Source of the DNA: a virus
Taxonomy: Duplodnaviria; Heunggongvirae; Uroviricota; Caudoviricetes
Virus record (IMG/VR): IMGVR_UViG_2695420539_000016
Strand: one strand, 5' to 3'
DNA length: 37,459 nucleotides
Shown: in pieces, positions 1 through 37,459 of the stretch
How the letters are laid out: the number at the start of each line of letters is the position of its first letter
Numbering within the stretch: the first letter of the stretch is position 1
Notes under the pieces: generated by a model
Seen by the model: only the letters and a program-made list of their open reading frames with translations
The model's database searches: none
What the model was told of the DNA's origin: nothing
Program-made: the position numbers and the translations under genes

Positions 1-405
1 ATGGATCAGGTCGTTGTTTTTCAAAAGATGTTTGAGCAAGTGAGAAAAGAGCAAAACTTCTCCTGGTTTTATTCAGAATTAAAACATCACCGTATTGCAC
101 ATTACATTTATTATCTGGCTACGGATAACATCAGAATTATTACTCACGATGACACGGTTTTGTTATTAAGAGGAACCAGGAACCTGTTAAAAGTTAGTAC
201 GACCAAGAACCCTGCTAAAATAAAAGAGGCCGCATTGCTTCATATTTGCGGAAAATCTACATTTCGGGAATACTGTTCAACACTAGCAGGCGCGGGCGTT
301 TTCCGGTGGGTTACTGATGTTAATCATAACAAACGCAGTTACTACGCCATTGATAATACGCTTTTATATATTGAAGATGTAGAAAATAATAAACCATTAA
401 TCTAG
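1..405 (+). CDS. ycgX: YcgX-like small protein (chromosomal, left-arm copy)
   Basis: 134-aa ORF immediately beyond iraM in the order icdC-iraM-ycgX-bluR that I recall for E. coli K-12; assignment rests on synteny and length, sequence not verified. Confidence 0.5.
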   Translation: MDQVVVFQKMFEQVRKEQNFSWFYSELKHHRIAHYIYYLATDNIRIITHDDTVLLLRGTRNLLKVSTTKNPAKIKEAALLHICGKSTFREYCSTLAGAGVFRWVTDVNHNKRSYYAIDNTLLYIEDVENNKPLI

Positions 406-613
406 CTAAAGTTGGATGCTTAAGAAATGCTTCATAATTCAGTAAGGCATTAGCATAATGGGAATAAAAGTACAGAGACTATCCCTATGGATGATAAATA
501 CTGTCCTTTTATTGCTACCCATAAATAATCACCATGCCAATACTATCAAATTGATATTTGAAATGTGATCACTTGACTTTCTATACGTTATTTTATAACG
601 GTTAATATATTTA

Positions 614-643
614 TAAAAACAACGGGTGTGCCATACGCCCGTT
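614..643 (-). terminator. icd-terminator-like hairpin (second, diverged copy)
   Basis: Stem AACGGG(T)G / CGCCCGTT, A-run upstream on + strand (T-run on - strand); about 55 bp resemble the icd 3' UTR/terminator. Confidence 0.3.
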
Positions 644-1100
644 TCAATACTTAACGCACATGTGTTTTGGTTTAGTCATCATCCAGTTATATGTATTTTA
701 GCCAGGAACAGGTTAAACCTTTCCTATATAACTCAAAAATTGAAACCTTATTCTCATGTCATGCTTATATTCATTATTATCGTTATATAAAAAGGCAACC
801 ATAATGTTTAGCAAATTGGCACAAAGTAGCATAAAGGCTATGTTTTAATTACAGGATGTTCAGTCATTTGAATGTATAACATTATAGCTAAACAAATCTA
901 AAACGAAGTGAATAATTTATTGTTTTCACTAAATCTCATTTTGTTTAACATCCATTGAGATTCCTTGCTTTAAATTTTGTTTTATATAAGCAATCGTTTT
1001 AATTAATTTATTTTTTGAAGGGGTAATATACTCATATGCAAAATAAAGAAATGAACATCCAAATGAACTATATTAAATACCGTGGGATAAGACATAACAA

Positions 1101-1424
1101 ATGAAGTGGATAGTAATTGACACGATAATTCAACCTTCATGCGGCATATCTTTTTCAGCCATATGGGGTAATATGAAAATGATCATCTGGTATCAATCTA
1201 CTATATTTCTCCCTCCTGGCAGTATATTTACACCGGTTAAATCTGGAATTATCCTTAAAGATAAAGAATATCCTATTACTATTTATAACATCGCACCATT
1301 CAACAAGGATTTATGGAGTCTACTCAAAAGCAGTCAAGAGTGTCCTCCAGGAGAAAGCAAAATAACAAATAAATGTTTGCATAATAGTTGCATTATAAAA
1401 ATATGCCCATATGGGCTCAAGTAA
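1101..1424 (+). CDS. iraM: Anti-adaptor protein IraM (RssB inhibitor), left-arm copy
   Basis: 107-aa [35 protein letters not shown]... matches my recollection of E. coli IraM (YcgW) nearly residue for residue; AT-rich context. Confidence 0.65.
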
Positions 1425-1471
1425 AGGGTTTTATATAAATATGCTCGATATGCTATTAATAATACCTACAT

Positions 1472-1504
1472 AAATAAAACAACGGGCGTGTTATACGCCC
1501 GTTG
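1472..1504 (-). terminator. icd rho-independent terminator (left-arm copy)
   Basis: GC-rich stem CAACGGGCG / CGCCCGTTG followed by T-run, directly after the icd-fragment stop. Confidence 0.5.
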
Positions 1505-1526
1505 CAATATTAAACACATGTAGTGA

Positions 1527-1691
1527 TTACATGTTCTTGATGATCGCATCACCAAATTCTGAACATTTCAGCAGTTTAGCGCCTTCCATCAGACGTTCGA
1601 AGTCATAGGTTACAGTCTTGGCGTTGATTGCGCCTTCCATACCTTTAACAATCAGGTCTGCGGCTTCAGTCCAGCCCATATGGCGTAACAT
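1527..1691 (-). pseudogene. icdC: icd 3' fragment (icdC), prophage attR relic, left-arm copy
   Basis: Translates [54 protein letters not shown], the C-terminus of isocitrate dehydrogenase; no upstream icd sequence, AT-rich phage-side DNA abuts it. Confidence 0.75.
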
Positions 1692-2227
1692 TAGATTTAG
1701 AAAATTATTATATCCAATTGAATTAAAACAATTTTATACTTAACGAACATCTAAACTTGTTTTTTTACCTTCACCATAACTCGCTGATTTTGTATAGTTT
1801 ACGTAGCGTTTTGATAACCACTTTATGGCAAAATGGAGGTTCGCTTGAAAACTTCTGTTCTTATCCAGAAATTAATGGAAATTGACAAAACTGTACTATT
1901 CGATGCGGACGTAGTGACCGGTGAGGAATGGTGGCCAACCCCGATTTCTCGTGTTTATCACAATCCGCCACATACTTATGTAGAATTTTAAACAGGTGAA
2001 CAATCTCAAAATGAATCTGACGAGCTAAGTGTTTATAGCGAATTACAAATTTGTGCACATCGAATGATGCAAATTAGAGATTTTGTGCAATCTAACGAGG
2101 GACTGAAACCTGAAAAAATTGTTTCGGAAATAAACATTCAAATTGAACGTATTAAAAAGTGATGGCTGAAGCAATTCTGAAACACTAATTCATATTCTAT
2201 GTTCTTCATACCAATGTGGATTTAACT

Positions 2228-2253
2228 CCCACCCACCCACCAACCCACCAACC
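2228..2253 (-). repeat. G-quadruplex-type G-tract cluster (C-rich on + strand), about 260 bp upstream of the GmrSD-like gene
   Basis: cccacccacccaccaacccaccaacc on + strand, i.e. GGG-N-GGG-N-GGG-N-GGG on - strand, isolated in AT-rich DNA. Confidence 0.35.
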
Positions 2254-2472
2254 ATGATTGGGCGGCGCAAGAAACTAATATCAATTAAAACAGCAAGTTA
2301 TCAGTCTAAACAGAACACCAACGGGATGGAGGAGAGACAAAAAATATCCAATGAAACCGTAGCGCGTCAGCATTCAAAAGCGGGGTTTCTTATTTTTACT
2401 TCACCAGTAACAAATACACTGTATCATAACTACATAAAAATGATTGTTCTGACTCAGATGAATTTCTTACTC

Positions 2473-2501
2473 TTGTGGAATGTCACTTAATGTTATTTAT
2501 A
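2473..2501 (+). promoter_or_regulatory. Candidate sigma70 promoter of the GmrSD-like gene (mirrored at 8412..8440 on - strand)
   Basis: TTGTGG, 17-bp spacer, TTTATA, then AGGT Shine-Dalgarno and ATG at 2510; read by eye. Confidence 0.25.
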
Positions 2502-2509
2502 GGTAAACA

Positions 2510-4399
2510 ATGAAATCCGAAACGCTAACCATCCAGCAAATTTTCCAAAATCAACGACAATATCGTGTTCCATTCTATCAACGTGCCTACGTATGGACGC
2601 AACGAAACCAATGGTCAGCTTTGTTGGAGGATATCTTCGAAAAAGCACAGAGCCGACTTTCGGGAACAAAACCAACCCCTCATTTCCTCGGCGCGGTGGT
2701 GCTGGAACCTCAACTCAAAAACAGCTTGTTAGGTGTAGATACCATACATATTATTGACGGCCAGCAACGTTTAACCACTCTTCAATATATTCTGGCATCC
2801 ATTCGATTATCATTGCGTGCTACAGGCCTTTCTGAACTGGAAGGGTTAGTATTGACTTGCTTGAAAAATACAAACGAAGCAACGATGAGAAATAAAAAGG
2901 TAGAATGCTTCAAACTGTGGCCAACTTTTCGAGATCAAACTCATTTTATTCAAAGTCTTAATGTTGATAATATTGACGATCTCCGTAATGTATTTTCTGA
3001 TAGCTTCACGCAACATGGTACGTTACGTAAACATTTCAACCACCCGCCGTCACTAGAGGCATTATGGTTTTTTACTGAAGCCTTTATAAAATGGATTAAA
3101 ATAGAAAACCACTCACCACAAGAAAATGCTGTAGCACTAATTGAGGCTGTCTTGACGGATCTGAAACTGGTAAGCATATTTCTCGAAGCTGAAGATGATG
3201 CCCAAATAATTTTTGAAACATTAAATGGGCGAGGAGCGGAACTTCATGCAACGGATCTTATTCGCAACTATATCTTTATGTGCGCTGAGCATGAAAATAT
3301 TAATGCTATTGAATTATATGAAAATGAGTGGAAGATCTTTGAAGATAAATACTGGTCGGAAAAGCAACGCCGTGGACGTATTAATAAACCACGCATGGAG
3401 TGGCTTGTACATGCGACATTGCAATCAGAAAGGCAGCGTGAAATTGATCTGTCTCGCCTTTACAATGAGTATCGTGATTATGTAAGTAAGGACTTGCCTT
3501 CACAACGAGCAGATCTGCAAGTAAAGCGCCTCAAACAATATGCATCACAATATAAAGAATTGGTTGGTGGTTTTGGCACAACCCCCATCTCACACTTTGG
3601 ACATCGCATCGCAGCCTATGATGTGACGACACTCTATCCGCTTGCTTTGTTCATTTCGATAGCTAACATCGCCGATGATGAGAAAGCAGCCATGTATAAT
3701 GATCTTGTCTCCTACGTAGTACGAAGATCCGTATGTGGCCTGACGCCAAAGAATTACAACAATGTATTTATGAATGTATTGCGACACTTGTCTAAAACGG
3801 AAATTTCCAGTGTTGAGTTACGTAATATCCTCAATAGCTTAAATGGCGAAGCCTCACGTTGGCCTGGGGACTCAGAATTTCTCAACGCTTGCATCAATGC
3901 TCCACTTTATCCTGGCAGGCTCGACGCACCGAAAATGCGCTCAATGTTAACGGAACTTGAAAGAGAACTTTGTCGCCAAGTGAAGACAGAAAAGCCTGAT
4001 GTTCCAAATCTTTCTAATCTCGATATCGATCATCTTATGCCTCAAAGTTGGTATTCCTGTTGGCCTCTCGAAAATGGTCATATGGTGACAAATTCAGATG
4101 CTACGGTAATGAACCAAATTGTTCTGTCTGGAACCGATCTTACCCCTGAACAGCTACTGGTAAGGAAACGGCAACAAGCGATAGCTACGTTGGGAAATCT
4201 AACTTTGCTTAACCTTAGCGTAAACCGTTCCGTTCAGAATGCTGTATTTCTGAAAAAACGTGATGCTCTCATCGTCCACACCAATCTACGACTGAACATA
4301 CCACTTATACTTAAGGATAAATGGGATGAGAGTGAAATACAGGAGCGAGGTAAAAAGTTGGGGGAAATTGCATTGAAAGTATGGCCAAAATACGATTAA
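2510..4399 (+). CDS. DUF262/DUF1524 protein, GmrSD/BrxU-type candidate type IV (modification-dependent) restriction endonuclease, left-arm copy
   Basis: 629 aa; N-terminal ParB-like DUF262 motifs YRVPFYQRAYVW and IIDGQQRLTTL; C-terminal DUF1524/HNH-like motifs DIDHLMPQ and GNLTLLNLSVNRSVQN. Confidence 0.8.
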   Translation: MKSETLTIQQIFQNQRQYRVPFYQRAYVWTQRNQWSALLEDIFEKAQSRLSGTKPTPHFLGAVVLEPQLKNSLLGVDTIHIIDGQQRLTTLQYILASIRLSLRATGLSELEGLVLTCLKNTNEATMRNKKVECFKLWPTFRDQTHFIQSLNVDNIDDLRNVFSDSFTQHGTLRKHFNHPPSLEALWFFTEAFIKWIKIENHSPQENAVALIEAVLTDLKLVSIFLEAEDDAQIIFETLNGRGAELHATDLIRNYIFMCAEHENINAIELYENEWKIFEDKYWSEKQRRGRINKPRMEWLVHATLQSERQREIDLSRLYNEYRDYVSKDLPSQRADLQVKRLKQYASQYKELVGGFGTTPISHFGHRIAAYDVTTLYPLALFISIANIADDEKAAMYNDLVSYVVRRSVCGLTPKNYNNVFMNVLRHLSKTEISSVELRNILNSLNGEASRWPGDSEFLNACINAPLYPGRLDAPKMRSMLTELERELCRQVKTEKPDVPNLSNLDIDHLMPQSWYSCWPLENGHMVTNSDATVMNQIVLSGTDLTPEQLLVRKRQQAIATLGNLTLLNLSVNRSVQNAVFLKKRDALIVHTNLRLNIPLILKDKWDESEIQERGKKLGEIALKVWPKYD

Positions 4400-4421
4400 T
4401 GCAATTAATAAAATGATTATA

Positions 4422-4445
4422 GCGGCCTTACATTAGTAAGGCCGC
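4422..4445. terminator. Hairpin between convergent pin stub and GmrSD-like gene (possible bidirectional terminator)
   Basis: Mirror of 6468..6491: 9-bp stem GCGGCCTTA / TAAGGCCGC, 6-nt loop. Confidence 0.35.
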
Positions 4446-4624
4446 AACTCACTATTAAATCCTTTAATTTGCATCAAGAACAGCACTGTCAGCCCTAGGC
4501 TCTCGGACTTTGTACCGCTTATCTTGTCTTCAAAAATCAGCTCGCATCCTGCACAGTTCAACGCATTACGTTGTAGATCGATTTTCTGGTCATTTGTTGA
4601 TACGCAAACATAGCCAATAAGCAT
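4433..4624 (-). pseudogene. Truncated Hin/Gin/Pin-family serine invertase (pin 5' stub, about 45 native codons)
   Basis: MLIGYVCVSTNDQKIDLQRNALNCAGCELIFEDKISGT... matches Pin/Gin N-terminus, then diverges into 18 unrelated codons and stops; conserved Arg before the catalytic Ser is Cys. Confidence 0.75.
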
Positions 4625-4650
4625 GGTAGCTCCCTCTGACAAAAGCAGGA

Positions 4651-5058
4651 ATGATGCCATTTTCTCGTTATTTCTGCATTTTCATAAACGTTGGTTTGGG
4701 AGAAGCGGCAAAACGGAATGTAGGTAACGGGCAAAACCAAATTCCGGATATGGCGGCGTTTGCCAGTTCACTTTCATCAACGGGTTTTCAAAAACTCCCT
4801 TCAGGTCTGATTATTCAGTGGGGTATTGTCAGTGGAGCATCAAACTATACGGTGACTTACCCGGTAACATTCCCAAATCGTTCACTTGCGCTGTTGGCTG
4901 TGCCACATACAACGTCGTTGGCTGGTATATCTGCAATGGGCATTGCGAACTGTTCTGATATCACCAAATCACAGTTCTATATAATTGTTGGCGGTATATC
5001 TCAGGGAGAAATTGTCAAATATGAAAGGTCCTGTTTTTGGGTAGCAATCGGTGTATAG
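4651..5058 (+). CDS. Tail-fibre variable C-terminal exon A, here orphaned (first codons come from the flank, not from a fibre constant region)
   Basis: Residues after GLGE are identical to the C-terminal part of the 218-aa fibre at 34814..35470; the leader MMPFSRYFCIFINV is antisense of the pin stub region. Confidence 0.5.
   Translation: MMPFSRYFCIFINVGLGEAAKRNVGNGQNQIPDMAAFASSLSSTGFQKLPSGLIIQWGIVSGASNYTVTYPVTFPNRSLALLAVPHTTSLAGISAMGIANCSDITKSQFYIIVGGISQGEIVKYERSCFWVAIGV
4679..4704. other. Hybrid crossover site: outer half-site is the inverted outer half of ixR, inner half-site is that of ixL
   Basis: TTTTCATAAACG-TT-GGTTTGGGAGAA; compare normal ixL at 35091..35116 (CTCTTCAAAACC-TT-GGTTTGGGAGAA) and ixR at 6209..6234. 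Confidence 0.55.
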
Positions 5059-5066
5059 GTATATCT

Positions 5067-5462
5067 ATGATTTATTTCTCAAAATCGACTAATGGTTTTT
5101 TCTTTGATGGTATAAACAGCGACATGCCTGCTGACATTGTTGAGATAAGTACAGACTTATACAATGAATTAATTGCCGGACAGCAGGAAGGGGGTAAATT
5201 AATCACGTCAGATGAAAATGGTTTACCGGTACTGAAATCTCCGGCGATTGATTATGTCGCACGTGCTGAAAATCAGCGAATGCAGTTACTTGCTCATGCC
5301 GATAATGTCACAGCTGACTGGCGAGTGGAATTAATGCTTGGTGATATCAGCAGTACAGATAAAGAAAAACTATCCGCCTGGATGGACTACAAAAAAGAAG
5401 TAAAAGCCGTCGACACTTCGACGGCTCCTGAGATTAGCTGGCCTGAGTTACCGGAGGTGTAG
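5067..5462 (+). CDS. Tail fibre assembly protein (Tfa), partner of exon A
   Basis: C-terminal motif VDTSTAPEISWPELPEV typical of lambda Tfa / Mu U family; weak RBS before ATG at 5067. Confidence 0.75.
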   Translation: MIYFSKSTNGFFFDGINSDMPADIVEISTDLYNELIAGQQEGGKLITSDENGLPVLKSPAIDYVARAENQRMQLLAHADNVTADWRVELMLGDISSTDKEKLSAWMDYKKEVKAVDTSTAPEISWPELPEV

Positions 5463-5871
5463 GCCATTCAATATCTGGAGCACTGGAGGTATCCACCAGT
5501 TCCAGTGCGTCCAGGTAATCCAGCCACAAATTATATAGTGCCAGTTCCTCGTCTTTCAGACGACCAATAGCGGCTTTACCGGGCCATTGTTTACTGTTCA
5601 TGTATTCGTTGGCCTGATTAAGCAATAATTGCCTTTCTGATTCTGCCTGTTGAATAAGTTCTTCATGCGATGGTGGAGGTATTAGTGCCCATGTGGGTAA
5701 TCCATTTTTTCCTGCAACACGAATTTTGTCATATGGGGGCGTATTGATTGCAAATTCATTATAAACATCATCACTGACAGCCAGAGCATCATCTGGCCAT
5801 GAATTTGCATTAATGTAATCATCCTTAAGCGCAGGATTCACAAAAATGTTTAATGATGGACTATAAAACAT
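5434..5871 (-). CDS. Tail fibre assembly protein (Tfa'), partner of exon B
   Basis: 145 aa ending ...LVDTSSAPDIEWPTPPVTQAS; convergent with the other tfa and overlapping its 3' end. Confidence 0.75.
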   Translation of the reverse strand: MFYSPSLNIFVNPALKDDYINANSWPDDALAVSDDVYNEFAINTPPYDKIRVAGKNGLPTWALIPPPSHEELIQQAESERQLLLNQANEYMNSKQWPGKAAIGRLKDEELALYNLWLDYLDALELVDTSSAPDIEWPTPPVTQAS

Positions 5872-5872
5872 A

Positions 5873-6262
5873 TTAACCCCCTATAGCGATATAACGACCT
5901 AATACAGCATTTGCAGCAGTCGCTATGCTTGAAAAACCGCGGAACTGATTTGATGTAATTGCAGAAGCCGACAGGATTCCTGCGCCTGAAGGTGTATGCC
6001 CCACATGACTAACTATCATTCCATAACATGCTGACGGAAAGGCAAAAGGAAAATCATTAAGATATCCGGCATCTTCACCACCAGACCCACCAAATCTCGC
6101 CTGCCCCCACTGAATAATCAGTGTTCTCCGGGAACCTGAAATAATTAACGGAATCGTTACATACCCATTCAGACCAATGACACCCGATGCAGTGCCAGCC
6201 AGAGATAATTCTCCCAAACCAACGTTTATGAAAATGCAGAAATAACGAGAAAATGGCATCAT
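5873..6262 (-). CDS. Tail-fibre variable C-terminal exon B (alternative receptor-binding domain) with the same 18-codon flank-derived leader
   Basis: Shares MMPFSRYFCIFINVGLGE with the exon A ORF, then a different Gly/Ser-rich C-terminal domain. Confidence 0.5.
   Translation of the reverse strand: MMPFSRYFCIFINVGLGELSLAGTASGVIGLNGYVTIPLIISGSRRTLIIQWGQARFGGSGGEDAGYLNDFPFAFPSACYGMIVSHVGHTPSGAGILSASAITSNQFRGFSSIATAANAVLGRYIAIGG
6209..6234. other. Crossover site ixR of the invertible segment, copy 1
   Basis: TTCTCCCAAACC-AA-CGTTTATGAAAA; inner half is the exact inverted repeat of the ixL inner half. Confidence 0.55.
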
Positions 6263-6513: not shown

Positions 6514-8403
6514 TTAATCGTATTTTGGCCATACTTTCAATGCAATTTCCCCCAACTTTTTACCTCGCTCCTGTATTTCACTCTCATCCCATTTATCCTT
6601 AAGTATAAGTGGTATGTTCAGTCGTAGATTGGTGTGGACGATGAGAGCATCACGTTTTTTCAGAAATACAGCATTCTGAACGGAACGGTTTACGCTAAGG
6701 TTAAGCAAAGTTAGATTTCCCAACGTAGCTATCGCTTGTTGCCGTTTCCTTACCAGTAGCTGTTCAGGGGTAAGATCGGTTCCAGACAGAACAATTTGGT
6801 TCATTACCGTAGCATCTGAATTTGTCACCATATGACCATTTTCGAGAGGCCAACAGGAATACCAACTTTGAGGCATAAGATGATCGATATCGAGATTAGA
6901 AAGATTTGGAACATCAGGCTTTTCTGTCTTCACTTGGCGACAAAGTTCTCTTTCAAGTTCCGTTAACATTGAGCGCATTTTCGGTGCGTCGAGCCTGCCA
7001 GGATAAAGTGGAGCATTGATGCAAGCGTTGAGAAATTCTGAGTCCCCAGGCCAACGTGAGGCTTCGCCATTTAAGCTATTGAGGATATTACGTAACTCAA
7101 CACTGGAAATTTCCGTTTTAGACAAGTGTCGCAATACATTCATAAATACATTGTTGTAATTCTTTGGCGTCAGGCCACATACGGATCTTCGTACTACGTA
7201 GGAGACAAGATCATTATACATGGCTGCTTTCTCATCATCGGCGATGTTAGCTATCGAAATGAACAAAGCAAGCGGATAGAGTGTCGTCACATCATAGGCT
7301 GCGATGCGATGTCCAAAGTGTGAGATGGGGGTTGTGCCAAAACCACCAACCAATTCTTTATATTGTGATGCATATTGTTTGAGGCGCTTTACTTGCAGAT
7401 CTGCTCGTTGTGAAGGCAAGTCCTTACTTACATAATCACGATACTCATTGTAAAGGCGAGACAGATCAATTTCACGCTGCCTTTCTGATTGCAATGTCGC
7501 ATGTACAAGCCACTCCATGCGTGGTTTATTAATACGTCCACGGCGTTGCTTTTCCGACCAGTATTTATCTTCAAAGATCTTCCACTCATTTTCATATAAT
7601 TCAATAGCATTAATATTTTCATGCTCAGCGCACATAAAGATATAGTTGCGAATAAGATCCGTTGCATGAAGTTCCGCTCCTCGCCCATTTAATGTTTCAA
7701 AAATTATTTGGGCATCATCTTCAGCTTCGAGAAATATGCTTACCAGTTTCAGATCCGTCAAGACAGCCTCAATTAGTGCTACAGCATTTTCTTGTGGTGA
7801 GTGGTTTTCTATTTTAATCCATTTTATAAAGGCTTCAGTAAAAAACCATAATGCCTCTAGTGACGGCGGGTGGTTGAAATGTTTACGTAACGTACCATGT
7901 TGCGTGAAGCTATCAGAAAATACATTACGGAGATCGTCAATATTATCAACATTAAGACTTTGAATAAAATGAGTTTGATCTCGAAAAGTTGGCCACAGTT
8001 TGAAGCATTCTACCTTTTTATTTCTCATCGTTGCTTCGTTTGTATTTTTCAAGCAAGTCAATACTAACCCTTCCAGTTCAGAAAGGCCTGTAGCACGCAA
8101 TGATAATCGAATGGATGCCAGAATATATTGAAGAGTGGTTAAACGTTGCTGGCCGTCAATAATATGTATGGTATCTACACCTAACAAGCTGTTTTTGAGT
8201 TGAGGTTCCAGCACCACCGCGCCGAGGAAATGAGGGGTTGGTTTTGTTCCCGAAAGTCGGCTCTGTGCTTTTTCGAAGATATCCTCCAACAAAGCTGACC
8301 ATTGGTTTCGTTGCGTCCATACGTAGGCACGTTGATAGAATGGAACACGATATTGTCGTTGATTTTGGAAAATTTGCTGGATGGTTAGCGTTTCGGATTT
8401 CAT
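6514..8403 (-). CDS. DUF262/DUF1524 GmrSD/BrxU-type candidate type IV restriction endonuclease (right-arm copy)
   Basis: Identical 629-aa translation to 2510..4399. Confidence 0.8.
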   Translation of the reverse strand: MKSETLTIQQIFQNQRQYRVPFYQRAYVWTQRNQWSALLEDIFEKAQSRLSGTKPTPHFLGAVVLEPQLKNSLLGVDTIHIIDGQQRLTTLQYILASIRLSLRATGLSELEGLVLTCLKNTNEATMRNKKVECFKLWPTFRDQTHFIQSLNVDNIDDLRNVFSDSFTQHGTLRKHFNHPPSLEALWFFTEAFIKWIKIENHSPQENAVALIEAVLTDLKLVSIFLEAEDDAQIIFETLNGRGAELHATDLIRNYIFMCAEHENINAIELYENEWKIFEDKYWSEKQRRGRINKPRMEWLVHATLQSERQREIDLSRLYNEYRDYVSKDLPSQRADLQVKRLKQYASQYKELVGGFGTTPISHFGHRIAAYDVTTLYPLALFISIANIADDEKAAMYNDLVSYVVRRSVCGLTPKNYNNVFMNVLRHLSKTEISSVELRNILNSLNGEASRWPGDSEFLNACINAPLYPGRLDAPKMRSMLTELERELCRQVKTEKPDVPNLSNLDIDHLMPQSWYSCWPLENGHMVTNSDATVMNQIVLSGTDLTPEQLLVRKRQQAIATLGNLTLLNLSVNRSVQNAVFLKKRDALIVHTNLRLNIPLILKDKWDESEIQERGKKLGEIALKVWPKYD

Positions 8404-8685: not shown

Positions 8686-9221
8686 AGTTAAATCCACATT
8701 GGTATGAAGAACATAGAATATGAATTAGTGTTTCAGAATTGCTTCAGCCATCACTTTTTAATACGTTCAATTTGAATGTTTATTTCCGAAACAATTTTTT
8801 CAGGTTTCAGTCCCTCGTTAGATTGCACAAAATCTCTAATTTGCATCATTCGATGTGCACAAATTTGTAATTCGCTATAAACACTTAGCTCGTCAGATTC
8901 ATTTTGAGATTGTTCACCTGTTTAAAATTCTACATAAGTATGTGGCGGATTGTGATAAACACGAGAAATCGGGGTTGGCCACCATTCCTCACCGGTCACT
9001 ACGTCCGCATCGAATAGTACAGTTTTGTCAATTTCCATTAATTTCTGGATAAGAACAGAAGTTTTCAAGCGAACCTCCATTTTGCCATAAAGTGGTTATC
9101 AAAACGCTACGTAAACTATACAAAATCAGCGAGTTATGGTGAAGGTAAAAAAACAAGTTTAGATGTTCGTTAAGTATAAAATTGTTTTAATTCAATTGGA
9201 TATAATAATTTTCTAAATCTA

Positions 9222-9386
9222 ATGTTACGCCATATGGGCTGGACTGAAGCCGCAGACCTGATTGTTAAAGGTATGGAAGGCGCAATCAACGCCAAGACTG
9301 TAACCTATGACTTCGAACGTCTGATGGAAGGCGCTAAACTGCTGAAATGTTCAGAATTTGGTGATGCGATCATCAAGAACATGTAA
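9222..9386 (+). pseudogene. icdC: icd 3' fragment (icdC), prophage right attachment relic
   Basis: 54 codons encoding the Icd C-terminus; homology starts abruptly at 9222 after AT-rich phage-side DNA. Confidence 0.75.
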
Positions 9387-9408
9387 TCACTACATGTGTT
9401 TAATATTG

Positions 9409-9441: not shown

Positions 9442-9488
9442 ATGTAGGTATTATTAATAGCATATCGAGCATATTTATATAAAACCCT

Positions 9489-9812: not shown

Positions 9813-10269
9813 TTGTTATGTCTTATCCCACGGTATTTAATATAGTTCATTTGGATGTTCATTTCTTTATTTTGCATATGAGTATATTACCCCTTCAAAA
9901 AATAAATTAATTAAAACGATTGCTTATATAAAACAAAATTTAAAGCAAGGAATCTCAATGGATGTTAAACAAAATGAGATTTAGTGAAAACAATAAATTA
10001 TTCACTTCGTTTTAGATTTGTTTAGCTATAATGTTATACATTCAAATGACTGAACATCCTGTAATTAAAACATAGCCTTTATGCTACTTTGTGCCAATTT
10101 GCTAAACATTATGGTTGCCTTTTTATATAACGATAATAATGAATATAAGCATGACATGAGAATAAGGTTTCAATTTTTGAGTTATATAGGAAAGGTTTAA
10201 CCTGTTCCTGGCTAAAATACATATAACTGGATGATGACTAAACCAAAACACATGTGCGTTAAGTATTGA

Positions 10270-10299
10270 AACGGGCGTATGGCACACCCGTTGTTTTTA
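10270..10299 (+). terminator. Second icd-terminator-like hairpin (diverged duplicate)
   Basis: AACGGGCG-TATGGCA-CACCCGTT then TGTTTTTAT; upstream bases also resemble the icd 3' UTR. Confidence 0.3.
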
Positions 10300-10507
10300 T
10301 AAATATATTAACCGTTATAAAATAACGTATAGAAAGTCAAGTGATCACATTTCAAATATCAATTTGATAGTATTGGCATGGTGATTATTTATGGGTAGCA
10401 ATAAAAGGACAGTATTTATCATCCATAGGGATAGTCTCTGTACTTTTATTCCCATTATGCTAATGCCTTACTGAATTATGAAGCATTTCTTAAGCATCCA
10501 ACTTTAG

Positions 10508-10912
10508 CTAGATTAATGGTTTATTATTTTCTACATCTTCAATATATAAAAGCGTATTATCAATGGCGTAGTAACTGCGTTTGTTATGATTAACATCAGT
10601 AACCCACCGGAAAACGCCCGCGCCTGCTAGTGTTGAACAGTATTCCCGAAATGTAGATTTTCCGCAAATATGAAGCAATGCGGCCTCTTTTATTTTAGCA
10701 GGGTTCTTGGTCGTACTAACTTTTAACAGGTTCCTGGTTCCTCTTAATAACAAAACCGTGTCATCGTGAGTAATAATTCTGATGTTATCCGTAGCCAGAT
10801 AATAAATGTAATGTGCAATACGGTGATGTTTTAATTCTGAATAAAACCAGGAGAAGTTTTGCTCTTTTCTCACTTGCTCAAACATCTTTTGAAAAACAAC
10901 GACCTGATCCAT
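10508..10912 (-). CDS. ycgX: YcgX-like small protein (right-arm copy)
   Basis: Identical translation to 1..405; GAGG RBS lies at 10913+ so the gene context continues naturally past the visible palindrome edge. Confidence 0.5.
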   Translation of the reverse strand: MDQVVVFQKMFEQVRKEQNFSWFYSELKHHRIAHYIYYLATDNIRIITHDDTVLLLRGTRNLLKVSTTKNPAKIKEAALLHICGKSTFREYCSTLAGAGVFRWVTDVNHNKRSYYAIDNTLLYIEDVENNKPLI

Positions 10913-11132
10913 CAGGATAATAACCTCTTGTTAGTTGTGAGACTGCGTAGTGTGCACGATCGGTTTTACCACTTCAATCTGGTCTGTCCTTTGGCTGTGA
11001 TATGTACAGAGTGTGATAGAGGGAATATCTGAATTCTCCCGGTGAGCATTTTGCAACGGACCAGCTCCGGTACAAACGCTGTTGTGGGTTCAGATTATAA
11101 CATTCTGTCTAAGGGGCGGGATAAAGGTGAAA

Positions 11133-11400
11133 TTAGGGGGCATGAAAGATGACTTTATAACCTTGCTCACCCCAATGTTGTAAAAGTTCGTTTTGCCTTC
11201 TCGTTGGTGCCATGCCTGTCCAGACAATCAATGTTTGCGTCGGGAACAGTTCCGGGCGCGGCGATTCAATGGGATCAGCAAGAACAGAAATGTGCCATCC
11301 TGACAATGATAAACGCCATGCTTCCAGCCACAATCGTGCTCTCTCTTCAACATTCCACGCCATCAGAATGGCTTCTTTACCGGGCTTACGGCGCATTACT
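11133..11400 (-). pseudogene. bluR: 3' fragment of a BluR/MlrA-type MerR-family regulator; by synteny probably bluR (ycgE)
   Basis: C-terminal roughly 85 codons of the 168-aa ORF (...[52 protein letters not shown]...) resemble the BluR/MlrA C-terminal domain as I recall it; no MerR HTH region exists upstream on this strand. Confidence 0.45.
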
Positions 11401-12289
11401 GCTGGAGCCTGAGCCGGAGCATTATTCATCTTTCGCCAGTGGTGCCGTTCCCGCGGCATCACAACCGCTGGCGGATGATCCTGTCGTTCGGGCCGTGTTC
11501 CGTAATGAGGCAGTGATTCGTCGTGCTGGTGGGGTGGAATGTCTTGAAAGCTGGTTACTTCGTGAAAAAGGCTGCCAGTGGCCTCATTCCGACTGGCACA
11601 GCGAGAACATGACCACAATGCGACACGCGCCGGGCGCAATCCGTCTGTGCTGGCACTGCGATAACCAGTTGCGCGATCAGTTCACGGAACGGCTGGAATC
11701 AATGGCAACGGATAACTGTGCCCGCTGGGTATTGTCTGTTGTGCGTCGGGATCTCGGTTTTGATGATAGTCACGTTGTGACAATGCCGGAACTGTGCTGG
11801 TGGCTGGTTCGTAATGACCTGGCGGATGCCTTACCGGAAAGTGCAGCCCGTAAGGCACTGAGATTACCGAAGCCTGTTGTGCCGTCTGTCACCCGGGAAA
11901 GTGACCTTGTGCCTTCGGTTCCTGCCACCAGCATCATCCAGGATAAGGCGAAAAAGGTGCTGGCGCTGAAAGTGGATCCGGAGTCGCCGGAGTCTTTTAT
12001 GTTACGCCCAAAACGTCGCCGCTGGGCTAATGAAAAGTACACGCGCTGGGTTAAGACACAGCCGTGTGCATGTTGTGGAAAGCTTGCTGATGATCCCCAC
12101 CACCTGATAGGCGACGGTCAGGGGGGAATGGGTACAAAAGCGCATGACCTCTTTGTGTTGCCTTTGTGCAGAAAGCATCACGACGATCTGCATGCGGATA
12201 CCGTGGCATTTGAAGAAAAGTATGGCTCCCAGTTGGAGCTGATATTTCGTTTTATCGATCGTGCGCTGGCAATTGGCGTGCTGGCGTAA
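11204..12289 (+). CDS. DUF968-type phage protein (Qin YdfU-like) with C-terminal Cys/His zinc-binding motif; 5' end uncertain and probably truncated by the junction
   Basis: C-terminus ...[24 protein letters not shown]...[12 protein letters not shown]; the track start is a TTG and the first roughly 60 codons are antisense to the bluR fragment; first in-frame ATG beyond the joint is at 11609. Confidence 0.5.
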
Positions 12290-12302
12290 GTGGAGAACGA
12301 GC

Positions 12303-13055
12303 ATGAACCTTGAAGCCTTACCAAAATATTACTCCCCAAAATCTCCAAAATTGAGCGATGACGCACCGGCGACAGGCTCAGGTGGTTTAACGATTACGGA
12401 TGTGATGGCTGCGCAGGGGATGGTGCAGTCGAAAGCACCGCTTGGGTTTGCCTTATTCCTGGCAAAAGTTGGTGTTCAGGATCCTCAGTTTGCGATTGAA
12501 GGTCTGCTCAATTACGCGATGGCACTGGATAACCCGACATTGAACAAATTGAGTGAAGAAACCCGGTTACAGATCATCCCTTACCTTGTGAATTTTGCCT
12601 TTGCTGATTATTCCAGGTCTGCGGCAAGTAAGGCTCGCTGTGAGCATTGTGCTGGTACTGGATTTCATAATGTATTGCGCGAAGTGGTGAAACACTCCAG
12701 AAGCGGGGAATCTGTTATCAAGGAAGAGTGGGTGAAGGAACTATGTCAGCATTGCCATGGTAAGGGAGAAGTCAGCACCGCGTGCAGAGGGTGTAAGGGT
12801 AAAGGTATTGTCCTGGATGAAAAAAGAACCCGGCTTCATGGCACGCCTGTTTATAAGATTTGTGGGCGTTGCAGTGGAAACCGGTTTAGCCGTTTACCAA
12901 CCACACTGGCGCGGCTTCATGTCCAGAAGCTGGTACCAGACCTGACGGATTATCAGTGGTACAAAGGATATGCAGATGTCATTGATAAACTGGTTACAAA
13001 GTGCTGGCAGGAGGAAGCTTACGCTGAAGCACAATTGAGAAGGGTGACGAGATAA
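12303..13055 (+). CDS. Late-gene antitermination protein Q (QuuQ/YdfT-like)
   Basis: 250 aa from ATG 12303 with GGAGAA RBS; four CxxC pairs (CEHCAGTGF, CQHCHGKGE, CRGCKGKG, CGRCSGN); lies directly upstream of the lysis cassette. Confidence 0.65.
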   Translation: MNLEALPKYYSPKSPKLSDDAPATGSGGLTITDVMAAQGMVQSKAPLGFALFLAKVGVQDPQFAIEGLLNYAMALDNPTLNKLSEETRLQIIPYLVNFAFADYSRSAASKARCEHCAGTGFHNVLREVVKHSRSGESVIKEEWVKELCQHCHGKGEVSTACRGCKGKGIVLDEKRTRLHGTPVYKICGRCSGNRFSRLPTTLARLHVQKLVPDLTDYQWYKGYADVIDKLVTKCWQEEAYAEAQLRRVTR

Positions 13056-13162
13056 GCGATTTTCGCCGAAGATAACGACATAATACTTGTATTTCTCAAA
13101 AAATATGGATAAGATTTTCTCAACGATGGGGCTTGTGTATCTATCGTTGAACAATTTTTACG

Positions 13163-13188
13163 ACCTCGCTATTGCGAGGTTTTTTTAT
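13163..13188 (+). terminator. Rho-independent terminator downstream of Q (tR'-like)
   Basis: ACCTCGC-TATT-GCGAGGT followed by TTTTTT. Confidence 0.55.
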
Positions 13189-13198
13189 GGTTTTTTTC

Positions 13199-13232
13199 TA
13201 TTCAATCTACATCAAAATCAATGTGTTATAAT
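13199..13232 (+). promoter_or_regulatory. Candidate promoter of moron 1 with extended -10
   Basis: TGtTATAAT at 13224..13232 with T-rich upstream region; AGGAGA RBS before ATG 13270. Confidence 0.3.
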
Positions 13233-13269
13233 GTTTTCTGTAAAACAACATTAAAAACAGGAGAACATT

Positions 13270-13539
13270 ATGAAACTGACCTCTATCCATCTTGAAATAC
13301 TACGTCGAGTGAATGAATTGCAGCCAAAGGATTCTAGAATTCAGGCTGCATCATTACCTCATCTCTCAGCAAAAGAGGTTAACTTTGCTATTTCAGATCT
13401 TGCTGATATAGGTTTTATCGATGTTATACGAAGCAAATCTGCCGAAGGTGGATTGATTGCTAATGAGATAACGTCAAAAGGTTTTGCTTTTTTGAGTGAG
13501 ATTGGCGCTGAAAAAAATTCATCGATGAGCACTCATTGA
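13270..13539 (+). CDS. Small winged-helix-like protein (moron 1, gene 1)
   Basis: 89 aa with strong AGGAGA RBS; helix-turn-wing pattern LEILRRV...EVNFAISDLADIGFIDV; AT-rich. Confidence 0.5.
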   Translation: MKLTSIHLEILRRVNELQPKDSRIQAASLPHLSAKEVNFAISDLADIGFIDVIRSKSAEGGLIANEITSKGFAFLSEIGAEKNSSMSTH

Positions 13540-13553
13540 TTTCTGCTTCAATC

Positions 13554-13571
13554 GGCTGCCAATTGGCAGCC
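13554..13571. other. Perfect 18-bp palindrome GGCTGCCAATTGGCAGCC (possible operator or attenuator hairpin)
   Basis: Exact dyad 15 bp after the stop of the 89-aa gene; no T-tract follows. Confidence 0.3.
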
Positions 13572-16866: not shown

Positions 16867-17217
16867 ATGCCGCCACGAATCCCAAAAGCCTGCCGTGTTC
16901 GCGGCTGCCGTTCTACCACTACAGATCCGTCAGGCTACTGCGAAAATCATAAAGGTGAGGGCTGGAAATCCTACAAGCCAGGTCAATCACGGCAGCAGCG
17001 CGGATATGGAACAAAGTGGGAAGTCATCCGGGAGCGGATACTAAAGCGCGACAAAGGGTTATGTCAGAACCATCTTCGGCAGGGAGTTGTGAAGCAAGCG
17101 TCCTGCGTGGACCACCTCAAGGCGAAGGCTCACGGCGGCACTGATGAAGACAGCAACCTTGAGAGTCTGTGCTGGTCGTGTCACGCAGTGAAGACCGCGC
17201 GTGAGCGGTTCAGGTGA
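16867..17217 (+). CDS. HNH endonuclease (terminase-associated)
   Basis: CxxC...HNH...CxxCH pattern: CRVRGC, CQNH, VDHLKAKAHGG, CWSCH. Confidence 0.8.
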   Translation: MPPRIPKACRVRGCRSTTTDPSGYCENHKGEGWKSYKPGQSRQQRGYGTKWEVIRERILKRDKGLCQNHLRQGVVKQASCVDHLKAKAHGGTDEDSNLESLCWSCHAVKTARERFR

Positions 17218-17343
17218 GAATTGATGTCATCATCAGCCAGGGGAGGGGGAGGTCGAATCTTTGCAACCGCGCGCCTTCCGGACTGCCCGCCCCATCGTTT
17301 TTTTATACCCGCGAAAAATGAAATTTAACCAGGAGTGCCGCAT

Positions 17344-17838
17344 ATGGCTGGAACGGCGGGGCGTTCCGGGCGTCGCCCCAAGCCAACGGCGCGCAAGGCG
17401 CTGGCCGGAAACCCCGGCAAGCGAGCCCTGAATAAAGATGAACCTGTTTTTACGCCCATCAAAGGTGTTGAGCCACCGGAGTGGTTCGCTGAAGAAGATC
17501 TCCCTCTCGCCACGATCATGTGGCAACTGACAACTAAAGAACTCTGCGGTCAGGGCCTGCTGTGCGTGACTGACCTCGCAGTGCTTGAGCGGTGGTGTGT
17601 GGCCTATGAGTTCTGGCGACGTGCCGTGAAAAATATTGCCAGACAGGGCAACACCATCACCGGTGCAATGGGCGGTATGGTCAAAAATCCGGAGCTGACC
17701 GCCAAAAAAGAACAGGAGTCCGAGATGAGCAGTACGGGGGCAATGCTCGGACTCGACCCCAGCAGCCGCCAGCGTCTGATTGGCCTGGCGGGGAAGAAGA
17801 AAGCCACTAACCCGTTTCTGAAAATCATCGAATCATGA
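17344..17838 (+). CDS. Terminase small subunit (P27-family type)
   Basis: ATG 17344 with AGGAG RBS; basic N-terminus; ATGA overlap with large terminase. Confidence 0.7.
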
Positions 17839-19568
17839 GCCGGAAATCTTACCCCAACGTAAATGCTGCCAATCAGTATGCCCGTGATGTCGTGCGCGGA
17901 AAGATTGTGGCCTGCCAGTTTGTGATTCAGGCCTGCCAGCGGCATCTTGATGACCTGATGGCGGAAAAAAGTAAGTCGTTTCGTTACCGCTTCGACAAGG
18001 ACCTGGCTGAACGGGCCGCTAAATTTATTCAGCTGTTGCCGCACACCAAGGGTGAGTGGGCATTTAAGAGGATGCCCATCACGCTGGAGCTGTGGCAGCT
18101 CTTTGTGATCTGCTGCGCGTTTGGCTGGGTCAATAAAGGCTCCCGGCTGCGCCGCTTCCGTGAGGTGTATACCGAAATCCCCCGTAAGAACGGCAAATCG
18201 GCAATCTCTGCCGGTGTCGCCCTGTATTGTTTTGCCTGTGATAACGAGTTCGGCGCGGAAGTGTATTCCGGTGCCACGACGGAGAAACAGGCATGGGAAG
18301 TCTTTCGTCCGGCAAGACTGATGTGTAAACGCACACCCATGCTGACGGAAGCGTTCGGGATTGAGGTTAACGCCTCAAACATGAACCGTCCGGAGGATGG
18401 TGCGCGTTTTGAACCGCTGATCGGTAACCCCGGTGATGGTTCATCACCCCACTGTGCGGTGGTGGATGAATATCACGAGCACGCCACCGATGCGCTTTAC
18501 ACCACGATGCTTACCGGGATGGGGGCGCGACGTCAGCCACTGATGTGGGCCATTACTACTGCCGGGTACAACATTGAGGGGCCGTGCTACGACAAGCGGC
18601 GGGAAGTTATCGAGATGCTCAACGGGTCGGTACCCAACGATGAACTGTTCGGGATCATCTATACCGTTGACGAAGGCGATGACTGGACCGACCCGCAGGT
18701 GCTGGAAAAAGCCAATCCAAATATTGGCGTGTCGGTTTATCGCGAATTTTTGTTAAGTCAGCAGCAGCGTGCGAAAAATAACGCCCGTCTGGCAAACGTC
18801 TTTAAAACAAAACACCTCAATATCTGGGTGTCGGCGCGTTCGGCGTATTTCAATCTGGTGAGCTGGCAGAGCTGCGAGGATAAATCACTGACCCTTGAGC
18901 AGTTCGAGGGGCAGCCGTGCATTCTGGCCTTTGACCTGGCGCGTAAGCTGGATATGAACAGTATGGCGCGACTTTATACCCGCGAGATTGACGGTAAAAC
19001 GCATTACTACAGTGTGGCCCCGCGTTTCTGGGTACCGTATGACACGGTGTACAGCGTCGAGAAAAATGAAGATCGACGGACAGCCGAACGCTTTCAGAAA
19101 TGGGTGGAAATGGGCGTTCTGACCGTTACCGATGGTGCGGAGGTGGATTATCGCTACATCCTCGAGGAGGCCAAAGCGGCGAACAAAATCAGCCCGGTCA
19201 GTGAGTCACCCATCGACCCCTTCGGGGCGACCGGGTTGTCACATGACCTTGCTGATGAAGACCTGAACCCCATCACTATCATTCAGAACTACACCAACAT
19301 GTCCGACCCGATGAAAGAGCTGGAAGCGGCAATTGAATCGGGGCGCTTTCATCATGATGGCAATCCCATCATGACCTGGTGTATCGGCAACGTGGTCGGC
19401 AAAACCATTCCGGGTAACGATGATGTGGTGAAGCCCGTCAAAGAGCAGGCGGAAAACAAAATCGATGGTGCAGTTGCGCTGATTATGGCGGTTGGCAGAG
19501 CCATGCTGTACGAGAAAGAAGACACGCTGTCTGACCACATTGAGTCCTATGGGATCCGCTCGCTTTAA
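17835..19568 (+). CDS. Terminase large subunit
   Basis: 577 aa; position and size; ATPase-like region EIPRKNGKS. Confidence 0.85.
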
Positions 19569-34813: not shown

Positions 34814-35470
34814 ATGCATCGTATAGACACGAAAACCGCGCAGAAGGATAAGTTCGGCGCGGGTAAGAACGGTTTTACCCGTGGTAACCCCCAGACCGGC
34901 ACGCCTGCCACCGATCTGGATGATGACTACTTTGACATGTTGCAGGAAGAGCTCTGCAGCGTGGTGGAGGCATCCGGTGCCAGCCTGGAGAAGGGGCGGC
35001 ATGACCAGCTGCTTACCGCGCTTCGTGCGCTGCTGTTAAGTCGCAAAAATCCGTTTGGCGATATCAAATCGGACGGCACGGTGAAAACGGCTCTTCAAAA
35101 CCTTGGTTTGGGAGAAGCGGCAAAACGGAATGTAGGTAACGGGCAAAACCAAATTCCGGATATGGCGGCGTTTGCCAGTTCACTTTCATCAACGGGTTTT
35201 CAAAAACTCCCTTCAGGTCTGATTATTCAGTGGGGTATTGTCAGTGGAGCATCAAACTATACGGTGACTTACCCGGTAACATTCCCAAATCGTTCACTTG
35301 CGCTGTTGGCTGTGCCACATACAACGTCGTTGGCTGGTATATCTGCAATGGGCATTGCGAACTGTTCTGATATCACCAAATCACAGTTCTATATAATTGT
35401 TGGCGGTATATCTCAGGGAGAAATTGTCAAATATGAAAGGTCCTGTTTTTGGGTAGCAATCGGTGTATAG
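34814..35470 (+). CDS. Tail fibre protein: constant N-terminal part fused across ixL to variable C-terminal exon A
   Basis: 218 aa; N-terminus [29 protein letters not shown] typical of P2 H / Mu S / e14 Stf fibres; crossover site lies at codons 93-101. Confidence 0.8.
35091..35116. other. Crossover site ixL (Hin/Gin/Pin-type, native context)
   Basis: CTCTTCAAAACC-TT-GGTTTGGGAGAA; left half matches 10 of 12 to hixL TTCTTGAAAACC as I recall it. Confidence 0.6.
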
Positions 35471-35478
35471 GTATATCT

Positions 35479-35874
35479 ATGATTTATTTCTCAAAATCGA
35501 CTAATGGTTTTTTCTTTGATGGTATAAACAGCGACATGCCTGCTGACATTGTTGAGATAAGTACAGACTTATACAATGAATTAATTGCCGGACAGCAGGA
35601 AGGGGGTAAATTAATCACGTCAGATGAAAATGGTTTACCGGTACTGAAATCTCCGGCGATTGATTATGTCGCACGTGCTGAAAATCAGCGAATGCAGTTA
35701 CTTGCTCATGCCGATAATGTCACAGCTGACTGGCGAGTGGAATTAATGCTTGGTGATATCAGCAGTACAGATAAAGAAAAACTATCCGCCTGGATGGACT
35801 ACAAAAAAGAAGTAAAAGCCGTCGACACTTCGACGGCTCCTGAGATTAGCTGGCCTGAGTTACCGGAGGTGTAG
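35479..35874 (+). CDS. Tail fibre assembly protein (Tfa)
   Basis: Identical to 5067..5462. Confidence 0.75.
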   Translation: MIYFSKSTNGFFFDGINSDMPADIVEISTDLYNELIAGQQEGGKLITSDENGLPVLKSPAIDYVARAENQRMQLLAHADNVTADWRVELMLGDISSTDKEKLSAWMDYKKEVKAVDTSTAPEISWPELPEV

Positions 35875-36283
35875 GCCATTCAATATCTGGAGCACTGGAG
35901 GTATCCACCAGTTCCAGTGCGTCCAGGTAATCCAGCCACAAATTATATAGTGCCAGTTCCTCGTCTTTCAGACGACCAATAGCGGCTTTACCGGGCCATT
36001 GTTTACTGTTCATGTATTCGTTGGCCTGATTAAGCAATAATTGCCTTTCTGATTCTGCCTGTTGAATAAGTTCTTCATGCGATGGTGGAGGTATTAGTGC
36101 CCATGTGGGTAATCCATTTTTTCCTGCAACACGAATTTTGTCATATGGGGGCGTATTGATTGCAAATTCATTATAAACATCATCACTGACAGCCAGAGCA
36201 TCATCTGGCCATGAATTTGCATTAATGTAATCATCCTTAAGCGCAGGATTCACAAAAATGTTTAATGATGGACTATAAAACAT
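35846..36283 (-). CDS. Tail fibre assembly protein (Tfa')
   Basis: Identical to 5434..5871. Confidence 0.75.
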   Translation of the reverse strand: MFYSPSLNIFVNPALKDDYINANSWPDDALAVSDDVYNEFAINTPPYDKIRVAGKNGLPTWALIPPPSHEELIQQAESERQLLLNQANEYMNSKQWPGKAAIGRLKDEELALYNLWLDYLDALELVDTSSAPDIEWPTPPVTQAS

Positions 36284-36284
36284 A

Positions 36285-36632
36285 TTAACCCCCTATAGCG
36301 ATATAACGACCTAATACAGCATTTGCAGCAGTCGCTATGCTTGAAAAACCGCGGAACTGATTTGATGTAATTGCAGAAGCCGACAGGATTCCTGCGCCTG
36401 AAGGTGTATGCCCCACATGACTAACTATCATTCCATAACATGCTGACGGAAAGGCAAAAGGAAAATCATTAAGATATCCGGCATCTTCACCACCAGACCC
36501 ACCAAATCTCGCCTGCCCCCACTGAATAATCAGTGTTCTCCGGGAACCTGAAATAATTAACGGAATCGTTACATACCCATTCAGACCAATGACACCCGAT
36601 GCAGTGCCAGCCAGAGATAATTCTCCCAAACC
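36285..36632 (-). CDS. Silent alternative tail-fibre C-terminal exon B (expressed only after inversion)
   Basis: Identical to the exon in 5873..6262; the current orientation leaves it without the constant region. Confidence 0.55.
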   Translation of the reverse strand, partial: GLGELSLAGTASGVIGLNGYVTIPLIISGSRRTLIIQWGQARFGGSGGEDAGYLNDFPFAFPSACYGMIVSHVGHTPSGAGILSASAITSNQFRGFSSIATAANAVLGRYIAIGG

Positions 36633-36646
36633 AACGTTTATGAAAA
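36621..36646. other. Crossover site ixR, copy 2
   Basis: Same as 6209..6234. Confidence 0.55.
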
Positions 36647-36700
36647 TGCAGAAATAACGAGAAAATGGCATCATTCCTGCTTTTGTCAGAGGGAGCTACC

Positions 36701-36892
36701 ATGCTTATTGGCTATGTTTGCGTATCAACAAATGACCAGAAAATCGATCTACAACGTAATGCGTTGAACTGTGCAGGATGCGAGCTGATTTTTGAAGACA
36801 AGATAAGCGGTACAAAGTCCGAGAGCCTAGGGCTGACAGTGCTGTTCTTGATGCAAATTAAAGGATTTAATAGTGAGTTGCGGCCTTACTAA
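36701..36892 (+). pseudogene. Truncated pin-type invertase stub (third copy)
   Basis: Identical to 6289..6480. Confidence 0.75.
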
Positions 36893-36903
36893 TGTAAGGC
36901 CGC
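36880..36903. terminator. Hairpin between pin stub and GmrSD-like gene (third copy)
   Basis: Identical to 6468..6491. Confidence 0.35.
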
Positions 36904-36925
36904 TATAATCATTTTATTAATTGCA

Positions 36926-37459
36926 TTAATCGTATTTTGGCCATACTTTCAATGCAATTTCCCCCAACTTTTTACCTCGCTCCTGTATTTCACTCTCATC
37001 CCATTTATCCTTAAGTATAAGTGGTATGTTCAGTCGTAGATTGGTGTGGACGATGAGAGCATCACGTTTTTTCAGAAATACAGCATTCTGAACGGAACGG
37101 TTTACGCTAAGGTTAAGCAAAGTTAGATTTCCCAACGTAGCTATCGCTTGTTGCCGTTTCCTTACCAGTAGCTGTTCAGGGGTAAGATCGGTTCCAGACA
37201 GAACAATTTGGTTCATTACCGTAGCATCTGAATTTGTCACCATATGACCATTTTCGAGAGGCCAACAGGAATACCAACTTTGAGGCATAAGATGATCGAT
37301 ATCGAGATTAGAAAGATTTGGAACATCAGGCTTTTCTGTCTTCACTTGGCGACAAAGTTCTCTTTCAAGTTCCGTTAACATTGAGCGCATTTTCGGTGCG
37401 TCGAGCCTGCCAGGATAAAGTGGAGCATTGATGCAAGCGTTGAGAAATTCTGAGTCCCC
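36926..37459 (-). CDS. GmrSD/BrxU-type DUF262/DUF1524 gene, 3' portion (gene runs off the window end)
   Basis: C-terminal residues identical to the 629-aa protein. Confidence 0.75.
   Translation of the reverse strand, partial: GDSEFLNACINAPLYPGRLDAPKMRSMLTELERELCRQVKTEKPDVPNLSNLDIDHLMPQSWYSCWPLENGHMVTNSDATVMNQIVLSGTDLTPEQLLVRKRQQAIATLGNLTLLNLSVNRSVQNAVFLKKRDALIVHTNLRLNIPLILKDKWDESEIQERGKKLGEIALKVWPKYD

Follow-up and report, generated by a model that had tools for sequence, protein, structure and literature searches.

In the 37,459-nucleotide stretch of viral DNA analysed here (the window), the last third (3' end) of the chromosomal E. coli gene bluR is joined to codon 34 of a DUF968-family gene of the neighbouring prophage, and the joint is probably a real product of homology-independent illegitimate recombination linking the middle of bluR back to that codon. 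The parents share no homology at the breakpoint, a downstream site has been joined back to an upstream one, the window wraps around by one unit, and both parents are intact in related strains. The junction probably existed in the sampled DNA, and topoisomerase/gyrase-type or end-joining-type illegitimate recombination is its likely origin.

When two overlapping queries (10400-12400 and 11000-11800) were compared by megablast with 5,426 complete E. coli genomes, the query split at one point: the window up to 11397 matches chromosomal ycgX-bluR at 100% identity, and from 11399 it matches a prophage DUF968 gene and the antiterminator gene Q, likewise at 100%. Base-level comparison with the intact locus of E. 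coli 19AR0254 (NZ_CM132280, locus L001) places the breakpoints at L001 42411, where identity on the bluR side stops (window 11397), and at L001 12001, where identity on the DUF968 side begins (window 11399). The switch from bluR to phage DNA that the initial annotation had located near 11400 was thus borne out. Between the two lies a single A (11398) that matches neither parent, bluR having T and DUF968 having C, and which is either a filler base or a substitution. The same annotation had suggested looking for microhomology, and base-by-base comparison with both parents in L001 found none at the joint.

On the bluR side, the 168-aa minus-strand ORF (11133-11639) matches BluR only over residues 157-243 of 243, with 87 of 87 residues identical. 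The gene fragment proper (11133..11397, minus strand) comprises these residues and the stop codon, and its only domain is MlrA_C, which Pfam finds complete at residues 87-163 of the ORF. Of the MerR HTH, helical and C-terminal domains that make up a functional BluR/MlrA-type protein, the N-terminal HTH and the helical domain are absent, and Pfam detects no MerR HTH anywhere in the ORF. The reading of this gene as the C-terminal part of BluR alone is therefore sound, and no full-length MerR-type gene can be rebuilt here. Equally correct was the order icdC-iraM-ycgX-bluR', which is that of the annotated intact locus of 19AR0254. As a separate observation, many E. coli assemblies contain one and the same 87-aa gene call for the BluR C terminus, with Met157 as its start (bluR loci L002-L011), in strains where bluR is split by a frameshift or nonsense mutation or is truncated beside a DDE transposase. 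Because these recurring calls stem from different lesions, bluR appears to have been inactivated repeatedly and independently.

The phage partner had been described as internally truncated, which is wrong: the DUF968/YdfU-family gene (11399..12289, plus strand) is truncated at its 5' end by 33 codons (99 bp), and residues 34-329 of 329 are intact. The absence of a convincing start had been recognized correctly, the intact start codon lying 99 bp beyond the breakpoint and outside the window. The gene is thus not full length and has no start of its own, although the Pfam DUF968 domain is complete. In protein alignments the 361-aa plus-strand ORF that contains it is identical to the 329-aa DUF968 protein over residues 34-329, and a local alignment extends back to residue 22 at 97%. 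This ORF (11204..12289) is an accidental chimera in which the antisense strand of bluR happens to be open for 65 codons in frame with the DUF968 remnant, so that it overlaps the 168-aa minus-strand ORF; the DUF968 domain occupies residues 192-358 of its 361. A promoter scan around the joint found no sigma-70-like site, so expression of the chimeric ORF is unsupported. DUF968 also has a weak match to the HNHc_6 nuclease model (E = 1.7e-4, below the Pfam cut-off), and a DUF968 homologue is labelled HNH endonuclease in records of SfV-like phages.

Comparison with related genomes, which the initial annotation had proposed, yielded an intact bluR together with an intact DUF968 gene, 30.4 kb apart, in both 19AR0254 and 22-250. 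In 19AR0254 a single e14-family prophage of 41,158 bp, as measured from the distance between the icd and icdC repeats, is integrated in icd, with the DUF968 gene inside it and bluR beside it. The early part of the L001 locus carries intE, xisE, immunity and replication genes, RusA and KilA-N. These are followed by DUF968 (329 aa), Q, holins, endolysin, HNH, terS and terL, and then by an HK97-type head, a contractile tail, baseplate, tail fibre, an invertible cassette and a 144-bp invertase remnant. The prophage ends with the DUF262 gene and icdC (attR), beyond which lie the host genes iraM, ymgK, ymgL, ycgX, bluR and bluF. The phage partner is thus indeed at the early/late boundary, directly upstream of Q, and belongs to the same prophage as attR.

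The window reproduces much of this locus. From 11399 to 37459 (plus strand) it is the late half of an e14-family prophage, with no mismatches to L001 12001-38061, and contains Q, lysis, terminase, HK97-type head, contractile tail, baseplate and tail-fibre genes, an invertible segment and the start of a GmrSD gene. The first intact gene past the joint encodes antitermination protein Q (12303..13055, plus strand), and the packaging module follows at 16867..19568 (plus strand), with an HNH endonuclease, a P27-family small terminase and a large terminase. Between Q and the holins is an AT-rich island (13087-14543; 35-37% GC against about 50% around it) with one ORF of 89 aa, which has a weak DUF2513 match, and one of 268 aa that has neither a Pfam nor a PADLOC match; the island may be moron or defence cargo. 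To the left of the joint, the displaced icd 3' end icdC (9219..9386, plus strand) represents an intact attR and hence the true boundary between phage and host. Host genes iraM (9489-9812) and ycgX (10508-10912), both on the minus strand, lie between attR and the bluR fragment. A direct repeat of about 48 bp (85% identity; 9392-9437 and 10250-10297) brackets iraM in a stretch of 30-31% GC, and recurs in an inverted copy of the region at 616-663 and 1476-1521. On the phage side of attR is a cargo gene with a DUF262 domain (6514..8403, minus strand), whose 629-aa product matches the PADLOC mREase_IV model over its full length and is a type IV restriction enzyme of the GmrSD family, of the methyl-directed type. 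Further copies of this gene lie at 2510-4399 (plus strand) and, in part, at 36926-37459; its site is presumably the one at which K-12 e14 carries mcrA.

The polarity of the joint is informative. L001 42411, the downstream site in bluR, is joined back to L001 12001, the upstream site in DUF968, and such a connection yields a head-to-tail repeat or a circle, not a deletion. The unit so defined is 30,411 bp plus the extra base, or 30,412 bp. Consistent with this period, a second copy of 4681-7047 is found at 35094..37459 (plus strand) at an offset of 30,412 bp, the two copies differing by one mismatch and one gap, both inside the outer half of a recombination site. Followed rightward past the joint, the window thus arrives again at the DNA that lies in front of it, and this sets the period of a duplicated or circular unit: one full unit follows the joint and leads back into the invertible segment and, in the GmrSD region, a further 839 bp. 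To the left of the joint, direct orientation is confined to 6.7 kb of the unit, and an inverted copy comes before that. The polarity accords with both of the forms that the initial annotation had named, since a tandem duplication joins a downstream site head-to-tail to an upstream one, and aberrant excision of the transducing type joins the prophage interior to adjacent host DNA, away from att, with the polarity of a loop-out.

The unit comprises the truncated DUF968 gene, Q, lysis, terminase, head, tail and tail-fibre genes, the GmrSD gene, attR/icdC, iraM, ycgX and the bluR fragment. The cos region is presumed to lie within it, with the HNH-terS-terL module. All replication, immunity and integration genes (L001 3821-11894) are outside the unit, which would accordingly be unable to replicate alone, unlike a specialised transducing genome. 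In length it amounts to 73.9% of the prophage (30,412 of 41,158 bp); the lower limit for packaging in lambda is roughly 75% of genome length, so the unit is at or below it. These two properties argue against a self-propagating transducing phage.

The left end of the window has an additional layer of structure. Positions 1..4704 are a perfect reverse-complement copy of 6209-10912 carrying ycgX, iraM, icdC and the GmrSD/DUF262 gene, and the limits of this inverted arm of 4,704 bp coincide with the ycgX ATG on the left and with a Pin-type site on the right. Between the inverted arm (A') and its direct counterpart (A) is an invertible tail-fibre segment (V) of 1,504 bp (4705..6208), a second copy of which is at 35119-36620. 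The segment holds a pair of opposed cassettes for gp53-like tail-fibre C-termini, together with two genes for tail-fibre assembly. It is bounded by 26-bp sites, of which TTTTCATAAACGTTGGTTTGGGAGAA lies at 4679-4704 and the inverted partner at 6209-6234, and which appear to resemble the Pin/Gin/Hin crossover sites (pix, gix, hix) with their central AA/TT. The inner half-sites and the core are common to the sites, whereas the tail-fibre side (35094) and the DUF262 side have different outer half-sites. The segment occurs in both orientations in nature, being carried in opposite orientations by the near-identical isolates 22-245 and 22-250. Colinearity holds between window positions 1-6232 and the flipped chromosome (L016, reverse strand), and between 4681-11397 and the unflipped chromosome (L001).

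In these respects 4705-6208 is like the Pin/Gin/Hin/Cin segments (e14 P, Mu G), which have 26-bp imperfect inverted sites, opposed cassettes and flipping between near-identical isolates. The likeness concerns the 4.7-kb inverted duplication and not the joint. A difference is that the adjacent invertase is present only as a 144-bp remnant (6289-6432 and 36701-36844), and the segment must therefore be flipped by a recombinase encoded elsewhere in the genome. The e14 P segment is known to be inverted in trans by PinQ of the Qin prophage (PMC12529663).

The leftmost 4.7-kb inverted copy thus probably reflects flipping of the tail-fibre segment. It is most simply read as the path of an assembler that would have walked between the two inversion states, in which case the A'-to-V and V-to-A adjacencies are each real but derive from different states. 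An arrangement that also fits is Pin-type inversion of one inter-segment unit within a concatemer or array that has three or more units; a model of this kind reproduces the whole window, including its last 839 bp, although the inversion of a whole 29-kb stretch between segments that it would require is itself conjectural. A tandem-inversion-duplication (TID) model was rejected, as was a duplication in two copies with one large inversion from pix to pix, because neither yields the sequence actually seen in the last 839 bp. The inverted duplication and the 2.4-kb direct repeat at the right end, both overlooked in the initial annotation, together indicate that the window is either a path through repeats resolved during assembly or a complex array with several copies. 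Its start at the ycgX start codon and its end within a gene suggest that it derives from a draft contig cut at a gene boundary or at a vertex of the assembly graph.

Other occurrences of the joint were sought in several collections. Megablast of the 5,426 complete E. coli genomes, INPHARED phages and PLSDB plasmids returned only the two separate parents, and exact 34-mer and 22-mer patterns across the joint had no match in IMG/VR, GTDB representative genomes or JGI metagenomes. An exact-protein look-up of 28 start variants of the two joint-overlapping ORFs against a collection of 15 billion protein sequences found none of the joint-spanning variants. Four short variants lying wholly within one parent were on record, for which five lengths are listed: 87, 76 and 57 aa for the BluR fragment, 226 and 223 aa for the DUF968 remnant. 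Contigs behind these truncated genes were checked for the 87-aa BluR form and the 226- and 223-aa DUF968 forms. The former proved to be unrelated alleles, with frameshift or nonsense mutations and one IS-associated deletion, and the latter a frameshifted copy and partial genes at contig ends.

A truncated host gene abutting a truncated phage gene could, on a superficial reading, be the scar of a deletion that eliminated both the 5' portion of bluR and the early half of a prophage integrated downstream of that gene. This is very unlikely: the phage partner comes from the prophage on the upstream side of bluR, and the attR of that prophage (icdC) is found 2 kb ahead of the joint, the window re-enters the GmrSD region after one period, and a deletion would join a lower to a higher coordinate, whereas the joint runs from 42411 to 12001; the reading was rejected on this polarity. 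Scarcely credible is the action of an integrase at att sites or homologous exchange involving two prophages, in favour of which there is nothing beyond the nearness of a prophage. An att junction would coincide with the icd 3' end, and icdC/attR (9219-9386) is intact 2 kb from the joint, its distance from the icd repeat defining the 41,158-bp prophage; the parents share no similarity at the breakpoint, and bluR has no phage homologue there. The claim of the initial annotation that this is not an att site therefore holds, and both forms of the explanation were rejected. Also improbable is the more elaborate proposal that the unit is a real amplified or packaged defective mini-phage, carrying the late and packaging genes, GmrSD, iraM and ycgX, which would have arisen by homology-independent aberrant excision and be maintained as a tandem array or concatemer, with a Pin-type invertase acting in trans to flip 29-kb units and so produce the A'-V-A structure.

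The strongest rival explanation is a chimera, a joint present in no biological molecule and made by blunt ligation during library preparation, by a chimeric long read, or by bridging or scaffolding. Positions 11399-37459 would then be plain chromosomal prophage, and 1-11397 a mis-walk through the invertible segment. Such an origin is possible though rather unlikely. It is favoured by the absence of microhomology together with the one unmatched base, since in-vitro ligation chimeras look alike, by the uniqueness of the joint across all collections searched, by an A'-V-A structure typical of assembler confusion (1-6232 matching the flipped L016, 4681-11397 the unflipped chromosome), and by the way in which the right end of the window stops within a gene as a contig end does. 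The probable assembler walk in the same window means that the assembly is not beyond suspicion. Against a chimera, single-read chimeric edges are pruned by assemblers, and neither breakpoint is at a repeat boundary of the sort where contigs normally end. An assembly-graph artefact at a repeat or mosaic boundary was considered for the DUF968 breakpoint and discarded, as no such boundary was found there: homology with other phages runs through the breakpoint, and the mosaic edges are elsewhere. Since bluR is moreover a single-copy chromosomal gene, a graph-based assembler would have had no reason to break or join at either point, and a join with zero overlap cannot be produced by a shared k-mer. 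Over the 26 kb that follow the joint the window contains no error relative to the reference, which indicates a polished consensus and not a raw chimeric read. Finally, two random fragments would have no reason to join head-to-tail 30 kb apart so as to close a clean period. The evidence for a real junction thus includes the closeness of the two sites, only 30 kb apart, and an orientation that closes a clean period; the evidence against it includes the lack of an independent occurrence in any collection searched.

If the junction is real, the end in the middle of bluR would have been joined back to codon 34 of DUF968 by homology-independent end joining. Such an exchange between sister chromosomes would yield a tandem duplication, and within one chromosome it would yield a 30.4-kb circle. 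The product could accordingly have stayed in the chromosome as a tandem duplication or amplification, or exist as a looped-out circle or concatemer of the specialised-transducing type. Candidate routes are a topoisomerase/gyrase-type exchange, as in the formation of lambda bio phages, and RecBCD/ligase-dependent end joining. Ikeda and co-workers reportedly described a class of lambda aberrant excision that is independent of short homology and linked to DNA gyrase.

Both forms have well-known counterparts. The joint resembles the join points of RecA-independent tandem duplications in enterobacteria in having a head-to-tail novel junction between sites tens of kilobases apart, a unit that recurs at a fixed period, and truncated genes at the joint whose outer copies would stay intact. 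Most described duplication join points use short repeats or microhomology, whereas the bluR/DUF968 joint has no microhomology and carries an extra base. Like the aberrant excision that gives rise to lambda gal and bio phages, it connects the prophage interior to adjacent host DNA with the polarity of a loop-out, and would carry along iraM, ycgX and part of bluR while keeping the packaging module. Unlike those phages, a circle of this kind would lose the whole early region, 13 kb measured from attL, and acquire only 2.2 kb; it would have 73.9% of genome length and be unable to replicate alone.

The joint is therefore an ordinary, known kind of rearrangement, or an artefact, and if real would serve as a useful example that opens no new question. 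The window is in any case not a simple colinear chromosome, and consequently the gene order and copy number in its left 11 kb, and its chimeric ORFs, should not be taken at face value. Were the rearrangement a tandem duplication, bluR and DUF968 would each keep an intact outer copy, so that the joint would cost no function, and the late genes, the GmrSD gene, iraM and ycgX would be present at twice the dosage. Duplications of this kind are lost again through RecA-dependent recombination. A circle would retain Q along with the lysis and structural genes and the packaging module, but the absence of integrase, immunity and replication genes, together with a length of 73.9%, would make it defective and at best helper-dependent. 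If real, the joint adds one more case of homology-independent illegitimate recombination at a prophage/host boundary, events of the type that generate specialised transducing genomes and tandem amplifications, and through it a type IV restriction enzyme and iraM, the gene of an RpoS-stabilising anti-adaptor, would have been duplicated or mobilised.
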